From a virus: a stretch of 56,377 bases of DNA. Below the pieces are notes generated by a model. It was not told where the DNA came from. It did no database searches and saw only the letters and a list, made by a program, of their open reading frames with translations. Shown piece after piece: positions 116 through 56,377 of the stretch (the stretch's first letter is position 1; each line of letters starts with the position of its first letter). A program made the position numbers and the translations under genes. The stretch spans positions 1 through 56,377 of the IMG/VR virus record IMGVR_UViG_3300024254_000001; one strand, written 5' to 3'.

Positions 116-128
116 AATTAAAAGTCAC
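1..128 (-). CDS. 5' part of a Gly-X repeat protein ORF; it continues at the window end if the molecule is circular
   Basis: GTG 128-126 overlaps the TGA 127-125 of the upstream ORF, the same AAGTGA coupling seen at 950, 1162 and 10271. It translates MTFNFGDGDGSADGDGSGYGYGDGYGSGSGYGYGSGYDYGSG. The frame is open to nt 1. Confidence 0.5.
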   Translation of the reverse strand, partial: MTFNFGDGDGSADGDGSGYGYGDGYGSGSGYGYGSGYDYGSG

Positions 129-418
129 TTCCAGCCCTTCACAACTCGCAAAAAGAAAACCACGCGAGCAATAGGAACCAAGACCGTGCCGCAATCATCT
201 GCAACCGTGTCTTTCAATGGACCAGATATAAGCTGTCCCAACCCTTGCAAAGTGCCCCACCTCCTGATGTTTTTGCAGTTATCAATACAAAGCAACCCCT
301 CGCTGATTGAACACTCCCCAACATGAACGAACCCGTTGTCCACAACCACGATCTGCCTGCCTAAATCTTTATTTTGCATAAAGTAAAAAAGCCACACGGC
401 TCTACTGCCGTGGAACAC
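125..418 (-). CDS. Hypothetical early protein (97 aa)
   Basis: ORF in the co-oriented minus block. The sequence looks protein-like (VVVDNGFVHVGE...NIRRWGTLQGLGQL). GTG start. Confidence 0.6.
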   Translation of the reverse strand: MFHGSRAVWLFYFMQNKDLGRQIVVVDNGFVHVGECSISEGLLCIDNCKNIRRWGTLQGLGQLISGPLKDTVADDCGTVLVPIARVVFFLRVVKGWK

Positions 419-3181: not shown

Positions 3182-3613
3182 TTATTGACGATGCTTATAC
3201 TCACGTTTCCAGTTCCTTTCACAAGTGCGGCAACATCGTTGTCCCGTGTCGCGGCGTCTTCTCAGATTGTCCCCAGAAAGAGGATGACCATGCTTGCAAT
3301 GGGATGGATTTTGCAAGGGCGAACGCCGCATGTTTTCCAAATGCGTCACCGCCTCTAAGTGCGATGGACGCACACAGCCTCGATTGCGGCAAATATGGTC
3401 CAATTCCAAACCATCAGGAACCGGCCCGTTGACTTGCTGCCAAGCCCAGCGATGCGCGTAAACATCTAAACCGTTTGCAAAGAACAGAGGATAACCACCG
3501 TCATTGTGTCCACCAGTCCAAAGCCAACAAGACGTTGACAAATTGCGAGAAACACGGCGCACGAAACGCTTGGCAGCAGACTTGAGTTTACGAGGCATAG
3601 ATAACCTCTCCAA
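3182..3613 (-). CDS. HNH homing endonuclease (HNH_3-like)
   Basis: CWLWTGGHNDGGYP...YAHRWAW...LELDHICRNRGCVRPSHLEAVTHLENM is a typical free-standing phage HNH pattern. The start could be ATG 3598. Confidence 0.9.
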   Translation of the reverse strand: MERLSMPRKLKSAAKRFVRRVSRNLSTSCWLWTGGHNDGGYPLFFANGLDVYAHRWAWQQVNGPVPDGLELDHICRNRGCVRPSHLEAVTHLENMRRSPLQNPSHCKHGHPLSGDNLRRRRDTGQRCCRTCERNWKREYKHRQ

Positions 3614-4838
3614 ACGGCGCAGTTGCGTTGCTTCCGTAACAAATCCAGATTACGGGGAACGGAGGCTCTTTGCTGGGGAACTCCCCCATTAAGTCAGTGA
3701 GGATCACCACCGCTTTGGGCTGAGGATTCAACGCCTCGCACCGTTTCAGCACGTCCACGAAGCTTGTCCCGCCGCCCCCGGCAATCTTCCGGTCAATCGC
3801 ATCGCCGACCGTGTATTCCTTTTCCCACAATACCCGGGTGTCGAACCCGATGTCCACCAGCTTGGCCGGGCGCATTTCGTCCAAACAATTCTGCTTCTCA
3901 ACGTGGAACTTGTTGACCAATTCGCCGAACGTTGACCCGGACCAATCCGAGCCGAACACGACCGGCCCCATCTTCTCAGAGCGCAGAGACGGCATGATGA
4001 ACCCGCACCCCTCGAATTCCATGGCCGATGTCAGAAAATCCCAATCATCGGCGCACTGCTCACGCAGCCAGGAACGAAGCACGTCCACCCAATCAATCTT
4101 GGGTTTCACTACGCTATCTACCAGACGCTCCAGACTGCCCGGCAAACTGCCTTGGCCGGATGCGAGCTTGGCCGATTGCAGGAGGGTAGCCGTCCAATCA
4201 TTCTGCAATTGCTTGGGGGATGGTGACCCCGGGGCACCGTTCGCGCCCTTTGGTTTCTCGATTTGGCCAAAAGAGGGCATTGACCCGGGTTTTCCCGTAC
4301 CGGATTGCGCACCATTTGCCCCAGGACGCGTTTTTCCGGACCCTCCGCTACCTCCAGACCCTCCCGGACTTCCACCCTTGCCTTGCGGCTGGCGCGAAGC
4401 GAGACGACCGTAAATCACCTCCTCTGCCAACCCTGAAAACTGGGGGTCAATGCAGTAATCGCTCTCCGGCTTTGGGAAGGGGAACGGATCAGCCAGCTTT
4501 TTGCCGGTCACAATCGCGGCAAACTCTTTCAGCATGAGATTGACCGCGTGATCCGTCGCCTGATTCCAGACGTCCCAATCGGCCCCAACCGGCGCTCTCC
4601 AGAGATGCCCCAGGAGACAATGGCAGACTTCGTGACACAGCACCGTGACCAACTCTTGATCGCTCAGCTTATCGCAGAACGCTGGAGAGAATTTGATCCG
4701 CTCTCCGTCAGTGCAAGCGGTATCGATCTTGTCATCGAATTCCACCGGCAGCTTGGCCACACCCGGCGCAAAGAATGGCACCGTGAACAGTACTCGCATC
4801 TGCGCTTTCTCAATGCGCTTCATTCGAGCAGCGCTCAC
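3588..4838 (-). CDS. DUF2201-type protein: N-terminal HExxH metallopeptidase-like domain, Gly/Ser/Pro linker, C-terminal VWA-like domain
   Basis: Contains HEVCHCLLGH and WNQATDHAVN. The C-terminal part has FGSDWSGST...GGGGTSF...VVILTDLMGE...PVIWI. Confidence 0.85.
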   Translation of the reverse strand: MSAARMKRIEKAQMRVLFTVPFFAPGVAKLPVEFDDKIDTACTDGERIKFSPAFCDKLSDQELVTVLCHEVCHCLLGHLWRAPVGADWDVWNQATDHAVNLMLKEFAAIVTGKKLADPFPFPKPESDYCIDPQFSGLAEEVIYGRLASRQPQGKGGSPGGSGGSGGSGKTRPGANGAQSGTGKPGSMPSFGQIEKPKGANGAPGSPSPKQLQNDWTATLLQSAKLASGQGSLPGSLERLVDSVVKPKIDWVDVLRSWLREQCADDWDFLTSAMEFEGCGFIMPSLRSEKMGPVVFGSDWSGSTFGELVNKFHVEKQNCLDEMRPAKLVDIGFDTRVLWEKEYTVGDAIDRKIAGGGGTSFVDVLKRCEALNPQPKAVVILTDLMGEFPSKEPPFPVIWICYGSNATAPFGEVIYAS

Positions 4839-53423: not shown

Positions 53424-54529
53424 ACACCCTCCTTTTTCATCAATGACGGAGCGTTCTGAGTGACTTCAACAAGACCCTCCGTGACTGCTCGCACAGATTT
53501 ATCCAGCGCATTGCCTTTCGCGCCGGTGACTGTGTTCAACTGATTTCGCAGCTTCGTCTTGCCCACAACGATGCACCGCATGAATTGCTCCAGCGTGCCA
53601 CCCAGGGCAGCGAACCGGGTGAAGCACTGTTGCGGGTCGGTGATCGTCTCGCGCTTGTTGCCAGGGCGAAGCTCCCACCCCGGTGGCACATGCTCTTTCA
53701 GAAACGCTTTGATTTGGTCCAGCAAATCATAAGCAGGCCCCAACGCCTCAGCCGCTTGCGCCCGTTGCTCCGGAGTCCAACTAATCATTGGCACGTCCAG
53801 AGCCGAGAGCATTTGCGGTGGGACGATCGTTCCGGCCCATTTCTGGTATTCCACGCACTTGGTCTTGGCCAAACAGAATTGACACTGCGCTTCGCCGGGC
53901 ACCCGTTGACCATTGGGGTCATTGGAGCGCAGCACGCGGATGAACATTTCATGCTGCGAACGGTCCAGGTCTTCTGTCACGTAAACGCACACCTCCGGCG
54001 TATGCGTCACGAACGGTTGCACGATGACCGCAGCAACCTCAGTGATCGGCATAAGCTCCCCCCGAGCCAGAACAGCCAGATCGCGCAGTTGCAGATTGCG
54101 AGGAGAGGCTGGAGTGTCGCCACTTAATGTTTTGTAATCTGCGATCAGCAGGCGCGTTGCCGCCCGGTAAATCACATCGGCCTCTCCGGAGTGCTCGACA
54201 ACGCCGCCATCGGCCCGCTGGATTTTAACCCAGAATCGTTTGTGCCGAAACACGCGCACCGGGTCTTTGCTGTCCCCGAGGAACTGCGCAACGGTTTTCT
54301 TTTCGATGTCCTGACAGGCATCAAACACCTCGCGCTCCTCCAGGGTGAGCTTGTCAGCAAGGGCATTATCAGCGAGAGCTTCGTGAATGCGCGAACCGGA
54401 ACTGGCTTCCTCTGATTTTGGAGGCTCAGACATCCCGCGTTGTGCGAGAAAGCGACCGGGACAGAGGGAGTCCGCCAAGGCCGAACTAGCACTAGTTGCT
54501 CCTCTGCGCGGGTCATTTACTGTGTGCAT
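53420..54529 (-). CDS. PD-(D/E)XK exonuclease, Cas4-like (4-Cys cluster)
   Basis: N-terminal Cys in SLCPGRF. EADVIY...LLIADYKT supplies the D...D/ExK motif. The C-terminus has CQFCLAKTKC. Confidence 0.8.
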   Translation of the reverse strand: MHTVNDPRRGATSASSALADSLCPGRFLAQRGMSEPPKSEEASSGSRIHEALADNALADKLTLEEREVFDACQDIEKKTVAQFLGDSKDPVRVFRHKRFWVKIQRADGGVVEHSGEADVIYRAATRLLIADYKTLSGDTPASPRNLQLRDLAVLARGELMPITEVAAVIVQPFVTHTPEVCVYVTEDLDRSQHEMFIRVLRSNDPNGQRVPGEAQCQFCLAKTKCVEYQKWAGTIVPPQMLSALDVPMISWTPEQRAQAAEALGPAYDLLDQIKAFLKEHVPPGWELRPGNKRETITDPQQCFTRFAALGGTLEQFMRCIVVGKTKLRNQLNTVTGAKGNALDKSVRAVTEGLVEVTQNAPSLMKKEGV

Positions 54530-54965
54530 ATTGGACCATCCTTTCAGTAGTTAAAATTTTAGCCGTTGGCCAACCAAGACGAACACGGTTCCTTAATGTA
54601 GTCACCGGGAGTCCAGAAATCTCCGACCACTCAACCACAGAAAAAGTACTCCCTTCAAACGTCAATAACCGATTGCTGCTCCTGTTTCTCGCCTGCTCTT
54701 TGCGAGTCGCCCAACAACAATTAGCCGATTGGTAGCCCAGCCGACGATCCTTCCTTTCAATCGTGTGCCTAGGAGACGGTTTTGGCCCCATGTCCGAAAG
54801 AAATGTTTCAAAGCTGTTCCACCGCTCGCAAATCGTAATGCCGGAACCGCCATAGCACGGGTAATCAGCATGGCGTGGATTTAGGCATCTGGAGCGCATA
54901 GCATACCAACTTATGTATTCAGAAGTCTCGTTGCCGTGTCGCGCATGTCCGTGAGTCTTTTTCAC
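54513..54965 (-). CDS. Free-standing homing-endonuclease-like DNA-binding protein (second copy of the family)
   Basis: YISWYAMRSRCLNPRHADYPCYGGSGITICERWNSFETFLSDMGP...NCCWATRKEQARN. It is inserted between the annealing-protein and nuclease genes. Confidence 0.8.
   Translation of the reverse strand: MKKTHGHARHGNETSEYISWYAMRSRCLNPRHADYPCYGGSGITICERWNSFETFLSDMGPKPSPRHTIERKDRRLGYQSANCCWATRKEQARNRSSNRLLTFEGSTFSVVEWSEISGLPVTTLRNRVRLGWPTAKILTTERMVQYAHSK
54536..54550 (-). promoter_or_regulatory. Early leader motif variant (CTACTGAAAGGATGG)
   Basis: Lies 6 nt upstream of ATG 54529. Confidence 0.5.
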
Positions 54966-56125
54966 TTCCCACCTCTCATTTCCTTAATCTTCGCGGCAAC
55001 CGGCGTGAACTGTGCCGCCGTGGATTCCACAACGGTTGGCAGGCCGATCATAACTTCCTCCAGGCTGGAGTGACTGCCATCAGTCGCCCCGGTGGCAACC
55101 CAGTACTCCAGCATTTCGGTTTCCTTTATGCCGCCCATCTTGAGCAGATTGCGCAGAGCCTTGAGCGGATTGTAAGCCGACTTCGTTTCAGGCTCAGGGG
55201 CAGGCGCAGAAGGTTCGGGGTAAATCGCCTGTGACCCCGGAGGATCGCCCGCGAGCTTTTCTCTGGTTTCCGCCGCCGCCTGAGCAGCCGCTTGCAACTT
55301 AGCCAGAGCTTGCGCCTTGGTGTCAGCCGACTTGGGGGCAAAATCCGGTGAGGACGTAGCAGGCTTGAAATAATCCTCACGTGTGCCAACGCCATCCCGG
55401 AGCGACTTGAAAATCCGTTTGAGGGACGCGATCTGATTCTCGCTCACCGCATCCAGCTTGTTGCCCAAACGCGCCTCAATCATTTCCTGTGTAACGGCAA
55501 ACTCTTGAAACGCGGCGACCATCTTGACGGCACGATCTTTCAAATGCTCATTCCCGGCACCCGCTTTGAGCGTTGCCCGGCATTGATCCACCGCAGCAAT
55601 CACGACGTCAGAATCAATAACCTCCTCCAGGCAGGCGCGAACCCGGCGAGCCGCCGCATTGGCCAGCAACTCGTAAATGTCCCGCTCATCTTTCAACTCG
55701 TAACTGCCATCCCGCGTGTCCCGCTTGTGAGTGACCTTGAATGTGCGCTCCGCTTGAGTATTGGTTTGCATGTCCCAGGCAAAGGCGCGTACGGAACTGA
55801 TACCGTTGCCGCGCTCCGTCTCAGTCCACCCATGGCGAATGTTGCCCCACCGGCTGGCGATTGCGCGAAGCAGGTCAATCGTTGGACCGGTGATCCGAGT
55901 GCCGCCCCGGTTGTATTCGTACTCGGAAACCTCAGCCAATTCCACGCGCTTGCAGGCAGTGAGAATTTTCCCGAGCAGCTTAACCTCATCACGCGGGAAC
56001 CGTTGCGCGATAACCAGGGCAGCTTGAATTTCCTGAGTGGCGCGAGCTACCGCACCGGCATCGTTTTGGGCAAGGGCCATCGCCCCGGCACTCTCATCGA
56101 ACAGTTGAACTTTGTCGTTACTCAT
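54962..56125 (-). CDS. Putative single-strand annealing/recombination protein (tentative)
   Basis: Called from its position upstream of the nuclease. The segment YEYNRGGTRITGPTIDLLRAIASRWGNIRHG...AFAWDMQTNT resembles phage recombinase-associated families, from memory. ATG 56125 is preferred over GTG 56161. Confidence 0.6.
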   Translation of the reverse strand: MSNDKVQLFDESAGAMALAQNDAGAVARATQEIQAALVIAQRFPRDEVKLLGKILTACKRVELAEVSEYEYNRGGTRITGPTIDLLRAIASRWGNIRHGWTETERGNGISSVRAFAWDMQTNTQAERTFKVTHKRDTRDGSYELKDERDIYELLANAAARRVRACLEEVIDSDVVIAAVDQCRATLKAGAGNEHLKDRAVKMVAAFQEFAVTQEMIEARLGNKLDAVSENQIASLKRIFKSLRDGVGTREDYFKPATSSPDFAPKSADTKAQALAKLQAAAQAAAETREKLAGDPPGSQAIYPEPSAPAPEPETKSAYNPLKALRNLLKMGGIKETEMLEYWVATGATDGSHSSLEEVMIGLPTVVESTAAQFTPVAAKIKEMRGGK

Positions 56126-56135
56126 ATTTTCGATT

Positions 56136-56377
56136 TCAATAAGCCTTTGGTTTAACAGCACAGAGCAAGGCGGTTTCTGTGTGTTGCGCTAAAAGAATTC
56201 GACTTACTAATTCATCGCAATCGTGACGAGCTAGTTTGGAGCCGTAGCCGTCGCCGGAGCCGTAGCCGTCGCCGTCGCCGGAGCCGTGGCCGTAGCCGTC
56301 GCCGTAGCCGTCGCCGTAGCCGTAGCCGTAGCCGTAGGCGGAGCCGTCGCCGTAGCCGGAGCCGTAGTCGTAGCCGG
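56136..56377 (-). CDS. 3' part of the Gly-X repeat protein ORF (continues from nt 1-128)
   Basis: In frame with 1..128 across the 25-nt end overlap. It translates ...GDGSAYGYGYGYGDGYGDGYGHGSGDGDGYGSGDGYGSKLARHDCDELVSRILLAQHTETALLCAVKPKAY, with the stop at 56138-56136. Confidence 0.5.
   Translation of the reverse strand, partial: GYDYGSGYGDGSAYGYGYGYGDGYGDGYGHGSGDGDGYGSGDGYGSKLARHDCDELVSRILLAQHTETALLCAVKPKAY
56238..56377. repeat. Degenerate hexanucleotide tandem repeat, right end
   Basis: About 23 units of GCC+GTA/GGA/GTC (rarely GTG or GGC variants). The last 25 nt equal the first 25 nt of the window. Confidence 0.95.

Follow-up and report, generated by a model that had tools for sequence, protein, structure and literature searches.

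We describe here a gene for a glycine-X (Gly-X) dipeptide-repeat protein in the virus record IMGVR_UViG_3300024254_000001 of IMG/VR, whose complete 56,377 nucleotides (nt), taken as one strand, are referred to below as the window. The gene lies on the minus strand, is split between the two window ends, and follows directly upon a gene for a predicted small beta-barrel protein. By their sequences, a barrel gene and the Gly-X gene after it make up a two-gene module carried by hundreds of phages and prophages, and we are highly confident that the repeat encodes a real, small phage protein belonging to this conserved pair. The module is therefore not unique to the window; it is widespread and undescribed, with homologues already deposited as "hypothetical protein". 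One odd open reading frame (ORF) has in this way led to a testable family, present in at least 250 viral contigs and in prophages of several phyla.

The Gly-X gene and its barrel partner

An array of hexamers of period 6 (Tandem Repeats Finder, TRF) spans both ends of the window, at positions 1-114 and 56240-56376, and an exact 25-nt overlap, TAGCCGGAGCCGTAGTCGTAGCCGG, joins these ends, bases 1-25 being identical to 56353-56377. Because the sole GACTAC (Asp-Tyr) unit of the array falls within this overlap, the overlap is genuine and the contig is circularly closed, rather than matched to itself by a chance agreement between repeat units. Across the join, the minus strand carries an ORF of 345 nt (114 codons plus stop) whose product runs from V/MTFNF through 38 dipeptide units, a figure that depends on the 25-nt join, to a C-terminal tail of 33 residues, KLARHDCDELVSRILLAQHTETALLCAVKPKAY. 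As read from sequence and translation, the 5' part of the ORF occupies positions 1-128, with the GTG start at 128-126, the MTFNF codons at 128-114 and repeat units at 113-1; the 3' part occupies 56136-56377, with repeat units at 56238-56377, the tail codons at 56139-56237 and the TGA stop at 56136-56138. Relatives begin with ATG (in AAATGA) and the same MTFNF. The array is open in all three sense frames, so the openness of the ORF is by itself no proof of coding; that proof comes from the comparative data presented below.

The array comprises 14 GGCTAC, 10 GGCGAC, 10 GGCTCC and 1 GGCCAC units, together with 3 of 38 units whose Gly codon is altered (GCCGAC, GCCTAC and GACTAC, placing Ala or Asp at the Gly position). 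The resulting tract (G35 Y16 D12 S10 A2 H1) has a net charge of -12 and counts 76 residues, as against 74 in the only relative contig that crosses the repeat (locus L077). A preliminary description of this DNA had given both the joined 345-nt, 114-residue ORF and its GTG start overlapping the upstream TGA, and on both points it was correct. Its strict (Gly-X)n, with X being Tyr, Ser or Asp, applies to the Gly of 35 of the 38 units and breaks down in the three just named; GCC, listed there as a rare X codon, is a variant of the Gly position, unit-to-unit differences are not confined to the X codon, and the distance between the stop and the recombinase ATG (56125-56123) is 10 nt instead of 11.

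The partner gene (125-379, minus strand) encodes an 84-residue DUF6948-like protein (MQNKDLGRQ...VVKGWK) with the motif WGTxxGLGxLxxGPxxxT. Its TGA stop (127-125) shares bases with the Gly-X GTG within AAGTGA, a hexamer that also occurs at 955-950 and 1167-1162, and a Shine-Dalgarno-like AAGGG (135-139, minus strand), recognized by reading the sequence, lies within the end of the partner gene 6 nt before the GTG; L077 carries GGAGGG at this place. From the GTGA overlap and the internal Shine-Dalgarno sequence, the Gly-X gene is predicted to be translationally coupled to its partner. L077 also keeps the C-terminal tail of the Gly-X protein (ARHDCD.L.SRILLAQH), with 15 of 24 codons identical, 4 synonymous and 5 non-synonymous.

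In the AlphaFold model of the Gly-X protein, residues 1-83 are disordered, with a predicted local distance difference test (pLDDT) score of 35-42, and the tail forms a helix at residues 88-108 (pLDDT 74-87); DSSP assigns no strand in this low-confidence model. The partner is modeled as a five-strand barrel with one short helix (pLDDT 94). Foldseek places this fold close to phage and DUF6948 proteins, at template modeling (TM) scores of 0.81-0.84, with DUF6948-annotated phage proteins of BFVD at 0.83 and 0.81; the best PDB fold matches (SmB, LSm, SmAP and 3by7) are modest, with TM 0.55-0.63 and E ~4e-3. At the sequence level, the window partner (P0121) gives no match to the DUF6948 model PF22253 at E<=1, and two other members score below its gathering score of 27 bits (22.5 bits for gp47 of Rhodobacter phage RcapNL, 18.6 bits for P0154). 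One partner, that of locus L011, is a true DUF6948 protein (E 2.4e-15, 56.9 bits); BLASTP detects no match between it and the window partner, and the link between the two came only via Pfam and fold comparison. PDB searches by sequence returned no match for the partner, nor for the "WRSD...LHAT" domain that is commonly fused to Gly-X tracts.

The window partner has 34 close protein relatives; a profile search recovered 250 relatives in IMG/VR, and an exhaustive HMMER search 1514 partner clusters at E<=1e-3. Among the best 80 of the 250 IMG/VR loci, with 38-79% identity, a same-strand (G-[YSDN])n ORF starts ~0-50 nt after the partner in 77, the three exceptions being a tract cut short (L091), a contig ending 22 nt past the partner (L107) and a tract located 324 nt downstream (L154). 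In the L011-type DUF6948 branch, a Gly/Ser/Tyr/Asp-rich ORF lies immediately downstream in 20 of 20 loci. One protein, P0008, which matches the window partner in BLASTP at 2e-8, unites tract, window-like tail and barrel domain in one polypeptide. The tract itself is carried by 238 proteins of a 5.8-billion protein set and is fused in frame, N- or C-terminally, to at least five different domains, including DUF7666, DUF6745 and the "WRSD...LHAT" domain. Tract length ranges from ~12 to 124 residues across loci, and 48 of the 57 complete Gly-X ORFs adjoining a partner end <=7 residues after the tract. At the other end of the protein, an N-terminal leader, M-[ED]-R-x-[LV]-T-L-D-G, is present in about half of 63 non-redundant loci, its place being taken by MTFNF or MTIHV in the window lineage.

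Clustering of neighboring genes found no third gene conserved around the pair in most loci, and the genes downstream of it vary between phages. The N-terminus of the Gly-X protein is leader-like, as in a precursor of a ribosomally synthesized and post-translationally modified peptide; such a role was rejected because neither an enzyme family nor a conserved third gene stands beside the pair. Pfam, PHROG and NCBIfam hold no model of the tract or the pair, and the matches of the Gly-X ORF in these collections (TrAA12, keratin head, phrog_18306 and a Ser-rich protein) were dismissed as sub-threshold and compositional. The literature searched yielded nothing relevant on the tract, the pair, DUF6948, DUF7666, DUF6745, GYGDG-type motifs or Gly-Tyr repeats in phages, so that the earlier impression of there being no characterized phage early protein of this type stands for the databases and literature covered here.

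Several variations on the pair were also observed. Many partner relatives (P0155-P0183) are tandem barrel duplications forming one protein of 170-250 residues; these account for the two-stretch top matches of the exhaustive partner search, which were considered as tract fusions and rejected. The duplicated sequences hint that the barrel may act as a dimer or ring. Two or three Gly-X ORFs follow the partner in a row in L086/L087, L093, L099/L100, L115 and L153, pointing to local duplication of the repeat gene. On a 2.3-kb contig whose 5' end is as in L074/L075, positions 2129-2299 (L076) join only 15 tract residues to a "WRSD" domain, which reflects either a repeat collapsed during assembly or a lineage whose Gly-X gene bears this domain at its C-terminal end. 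Prophage copies of the pair are found among 120 bacterial genome loci with the Gly-X DNA pattern, 15 of which have a DUF6948-like gene directly upstream (L203, L210, L218, L221, L232, L238, L249, L251, L252, L261, L278, L282, L295, L296 and L303; hosts include Cereibacter, Bacteroides, Sphingomonas and Clostridia). A protein-pattern scan of the genome contigs returned no partner relatives.

Two cultured phage-host systems, RcapNL with Rhodobacter capsulatus and the "Barba" phages with Rheinheimera BAL341, carry the module and make it directly testable. Searches with tblastn located the partner in RcapNL as well as in 115 myophages of the Rheinheimera Barba group. The RcapNL pair consists of gp47 and, after it, gp46 (MTPRTPDSVEEAGSSCPVFHTGSRYGYGYGYGDGYGYGYGDGDGDGYGYGYGYGDGYGDGYGDGYGDGYGDGYGF), that of Barba of gp018 and then gp017 (MEPESLAIKITGNGYGNGYGYG...GYGD); both repeat ORFs are annotated as coding sequences of hypothetical proteins. 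Six Barba isolates with flanks 99.5-100% identical show three alleles of the repeat gene, of 210, 216 and 216 nt, the two longer ones each having one extra GGCTAC at a different site; there is also one Tyr-to-Asn change. Thus, in the Barba homologue, slippage by whole 6-nt units occurs on short time scales, and repeat number differs between near-identical strains; the 2019 Barba genomics paper mentions neither the repeat nor its indels. With a unit of 6 nt, slippage alters length only and does not switch the gene on or off. The contingency locus envisaged earlier is therefore borne out as regards length variation in this homologue, and a phase-variable on/off locus is ruled out; variants departing from a multiple of 3, which the preliminary description had named as evidence against a coding role, were not seen, the Barba alleles differing by exactly 6 nt. 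In Barba18A, gp017 and gp018 belong to the first temporal RNA-seq cluster, alongside replication genes, with average log counts per million at the first time point of 10.1 and 13.0, respectively (PMC9305737 Table S2). RcapNL is also the source of a validated anti-CRISPR, AcrIC9, whose gene is described as belonging to a directon of three genes (PMC7391736). Some 1.4 kb from gp47/gp46, RcapNL has a block of three minus-strand genes (L161 1-1042), which might be that directon.

Contig ends and neighboring genes

Although the array lies at both ends of the window, its terminal position is a short-read assembly break and not a genome terminus. Close relatives of the window partner (66-89% identity) are found on contigs of 55-58 kb, like the window in size, and 5 of the 7 fetched, including contigs of 56,416 and 55,458 nt, break off within the Gly-X array, a few tens of bases past the partner gene. 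Only one of the seven, the Joint Genome Institute (JGI) 3300043607 contig (57,857 nt; L077/L082), reads through; its ORF consists of ATG-MTFNF, 74 tract residues and TIARHDCDILISRILLAQHMGTAALCGMK..., followed by RecT and a DUF2800/PD-(D/E)XK exonuclease, the gene order being that of the window. In the finished cultured genomes, RcapNL and the circular Barba records, the homologous array is internal. Contigs end in the array because the repeat breaks short-read assemblies, and the phage terminal repeat or pac element that had been considered for this DNA is ruled out, given also that the 25-nt overlap lies within the ORF. In this group of phages, contig breaks at the Gly-X gene are systematic, so protein catalogues contain too little of its product, and any "terminal repeats" called from these contigs are artefacts.

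The pair stands in an early block of replication and recombination genes, which, together with the early transcription of Barba gp017, agrees with the original view of the Gly-X gene as an early gene. Downstream of it, a RecT-like recombinase (phrog_3657) is encoded at 54962-56125 on the minus strand, and its L077 orthologue carries PF03837 RecT. As a conserved partner the recombinase was rejected, since a Gly-X ORF lies upstream in just 1 of its 71 IMG/VR relatives (L011). The recombinase link is incidental, and the real partner is the upstream 84-residue gene, which the preliminary description had not singled out. The recombinase/tail region, searched as DNA, has no match among 50,697 records of cultured phages.

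Upstream of the partner, a gap of 127 nt (380-506) holds a terminator-like hairpin with a T run (385-412, minus strand; consensus scan), and 2.7 copies of TTTCACG lie nearby at 498-516; on this slight basis, the gap may be regulatory and start a separate transcription unit of partner and Gly-X gene. The early region also has two HNH endonuclease genes, both on the minus strand (3185-3613 and 54513-54965). One of them is wedged, in the manner of a homing endonuclease, between the RecT-like recombinase and the PD-(D/E)XK exonuclease, where L077 has no gene. A few kb upstream of the pair, positions 3591-4838 (minus strand) encode a DUF2201_N/DUF2201 protein (SprT-like metallopeptidase plus VWA-like); such a protein, often with an AAA ATPase, is also found near Gly-X genes in several unrelated contigs (L072, L073, L074, L077 and L079).

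Selection on the Gly-X pattern and a possible joint action of the pair

Comparison across loci supports selection on the amino-acid pattern of the Gly-X ORF, as had been supposed from the window. The residue pattern is retained while codons vary by lineage: eight loci have GGG in place of GGC, others have TAT/GAT instead of TAC/GAC, and L011 and L080 use TCT rather than TCC. Across the loci, which include distant phages, the reading frame, the coupled start, the N-terminal leader and the in-frame domain fusions are conserved. The X residues are exactly the one-step neighbors of TAC, yet they are unevenly used, the set of 238 proteins having 849 Asp vs 52 His and 863 Ser vs 29 Cys. Transitions, if predominant among mutations, would favor the reverse of both inequalities, which points to selection on the residue.

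Adjacency of the two genes, their stop/start overlap, the P0008 fusion, the conserved leader and the tandem barrels lead us to propose that barrel and repeat protein act as one unit. The barrel protein, probably oligomeric as are other Sm/SH3-type barrels, would grip the conserved N-terminal peptide of the repeat protein, leaving the long floppy tract as a multivalent binding tail in which Tyr side chains would serve as contacts, Gly as spacers, and Asp and Ser to keep the tract soluble and negatively charged. Such a tail could gather or trap positively charged or aromatic-rich partners, for example nucleic-acid-handling proteins, early in infection, by condensate-like or decoy binding. The tract itself evolves by gaining or losing whole 6-nt units, which gives in-frame length variants. 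Taken as a whole, the explanation combining a real gene pair with joint action seems to us evenly balanced between right and wrong. Its mechanistic part, a multivalent Tyr-sticker tail held by a barrel, is a tentative proposal more easily doubted than believed, and somewhat less probable still is its most specific form, in which a ring-forming barrel would display acidic Tyr-sticker tails as a selective condensate, or as a nucleic-acid or tyrosine-cluster decoy in early infection, with length tuned by slippage.

A number of points weigh against this account. The binding-tail, condensate or decoy step is purely one that we infer, and the high Asp content should oppose self-association of the kind described for FUS or PEX13. 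The C-terminal helix of the window protein is missing from most family members, HMMER E-values on a low-complexity tract are unreliable as proof of homology, and the RNA-seq data on the Barba homologue show transcription, not translation. Additionally, tract codons appear frozen. Even where GC content is as low as 31-38%, as in L136, L162 and other AT-rich loci, 100% of tract Gly codons are GGC, a codon that these phages avoid elsewhere; in L136 (31% GC), GGC is used in 36 of 36 tract codons vs 6 of 66 elsewhere, and the Barba tract is wholly GGC plus NAC vs 7 of 50 elsewhere. The tracts of the window and L077 show almost no synonymous change, against 34 synonymous differences in 82 codons of the partner gene. 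Such freezing would follow from slippage-driven concerted evolution and equally from selection, in translation, for cognate codons; it may, however, leave room for constraint at the nucleotide level.

Of the alternatives, the one that survives best, though we consider it unlikely, is that the tract is a tolerated, self-expanding spacer. Slippage would swell a Gly-rich linker whose sequence matters little beyond solubility and freedom from stop codons, the working parts being the N-terminal peptide and whatever follows the tract (the helix here, globular domains elsewhere). A spacer is consistent with the roughly tenfold range of tract lengths between loci, the single-unit changes between near-identical isolates and the attachment of the tract to many different domains at either end, and codons are uniform within each locus, as recent slippage predicts. 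However, the tract makes up almost all of the protein in most members, given how few residues follow it in 48 of 57 complete ORFs; moreover, its composition of Y, S, D and N is narrowly kept down to 35-40% partner identity, H, C and F being rare though one mutation away.

Proteins of the Wzc/Etk/CapB type, the bacterial tyrosine kinases (BY-kinases), have (Gly-Tyr)n tails that are autophosphorylation sites, and the Gly-X protein might mimic this tyrosine cluster, competing as a substrate or inhibitor of the host kinase or its phosphatase and disturbing the control of capsule and exopolysaccharide or other phosphotyrosine signaling. A genome scan with the DNA pattern of the repeat gave many proteins with Wzz, GNVR and P-loop domains ending in GYGYGYGYGYGYG (L190, L192 and L281), and Asp among Tyr could imitate a partly phosphorylated cluster. 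Mimicry of this kind is nonetheless improbable, in that it leaves the obligatory barrel partner and the early replication-gene context unexplained, the phage tracts are 5-10 times longer than the kinase tails, some lineages are Asn- or Ser-rich and poorer in Tyr, and for the window phage neither host nor kinase is known. Wzc-type BY-kinases were the commonest bacterial matches to the DNA pattern; those ending in (Gly-Tyr)n, of ~6-12 units, lie at L190:2616-5069(-), L192:4931-7171(+) and L281:2763-5561(-), in Bacteroidales, Sphingomonas and another genome.

We give very little credence to a role exerted by the DNA itself, as a packaging or terminal repeat, origin iterons or a recombination hotspot, with the ORF incidental. 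The array at both contig ends beside recombination genes, GGC kept against genomic codon usage in AT-rich phages, and the near absence of synonymous change between window and L077 tracts would all accord with it. Nevertheless, the end position recurs as an assembly break, the overlap is just 25 nt and complete genomes of cultured phages have the repeat internally; the codon substitutions of other lineages leave no conserved DNA motif, while frame, start, leader and in-frame fusions are conserved, and the array always has one orientation immediately after the partner gene. A structured RNA regulator, or a sink for Gly, Tyr and Asp tRNAs tuning the downstream recombination genes, is just as improbable: the extreme choice of GGC and NAC codons and the position of the ORF 10 nt upstream of the recombinase would suit it, but the Gly-X mRNA is less folded than every one of 200 dinucleotide shuffles (z = +2.7), different phages have different downstream genes, and in-frame protein-domain fusions are hard to explain at this level.

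Comparison with known systems

The nearest known systems resemble the Gly-X tract in composition only, and each differs from it in at least one defining feature. BY-kinase tails are, to our knowledge, the only bacterial (GY)n tracts with a function, and they share with the phage tract literal (Gly-Tyr)n runs. However, in the kinases ~6-12 units end a protein of 750-930 residues, whereas the phage-encoded tract has 38 units with Asp and Ser and no kinase domain; the Gly-X protein was accordingly not classed as a BY-kinase tyrosine cluster, having 114 residues, no Pfam domain and no Wzz, GNVR or P-loop kinase. Silk fibroin (GAGAGS/GAGAGY) has the (Gly-X)n periodicity, with Ser and Tyr among its X residues. 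Its X is mostly Ala and it forms beta-sheet crystallites, whereas the tract, with X = Y16 D12 S10 H1, is not Ala-rich, contains many Asp and is modeled without strands, by which a silk-type beta-sheet former is ruled out.

For the partner protein alone, the closest counterpart is DUF6948 (PF22253), a family without known function: the fold matches at TM 0.81-0.83 and the L011 member likewise precedes a Gly-X gene, although the window partner misses the Pfam model. The pair as a whole recalls the Sm/LSm and Hfq proteins, in which a small Sm-like barrel is combined with a Gly-containing dipeptide or low-complexity tail; Sm D1/D3 have RG dipeptide tails, and Acinetobacter Hfq has Gly-rich tails. 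Here the fold match is modest, the phage tail is a separate polypeptide and acidic rather than basic, and RNA binding would be suggested only by analogy.

Low-complexity sequences rich in Tyr and Gly are central to the biology of eukaryotic condensates, and we know of no described phage counterpart, nor did the literature searched contain one. The low-complexity domains of the FUS family, reportedly built on [G/S]Y[G/S] motifs in the work of Kato et al. 2012, resemble the tract in predicted disorder, in Gly/Ser/Tyr content, in the many [G/S]Y[G/S] motifs (13 in the tract) and in having Tyr as multivalent contact residue, a role that is conjectural for the phage protein. The tract differs in being strictly dipeptide-periodic, in lacking Gln, Asn and Pro, and in that one in six residues is Asp, giving the charge of -12; the window protein is free-standing, with its own barrel partner, there is no homology, and phase behavior is only conceivable. 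The phase separation, hydrogel or amyloid formation suggested earlier for the tract would suit its many [G/S]Y[G/S] motifs, but the Asp share should work against self-association. PEX13 has a Tyr/Gly-rich YG domain that forms a nuclear-pore-like conduit of peroxisomes (PMC12173945). It shares Tyr/Gly-rich low complexity with the tract, a cohesive phase being demonstrated for PEX13 and conceivable for the tract, and it carries a small SH3 barrel, as the phage barrel is encoded by the adjoining gene; unlike the tract, however, it belongs to a membrane protein of eukaryotes, lacks the strict (G-X)n order and is poor in acidic residues, so that the likeness is compositional only. If the joint action proposed for the pair were true, the module would be a widespread, undescribed phage device and a bacterial-virus counterpart of the eukaryotic YG, FG and [G/S]Y[G/S] phase-forming domains.

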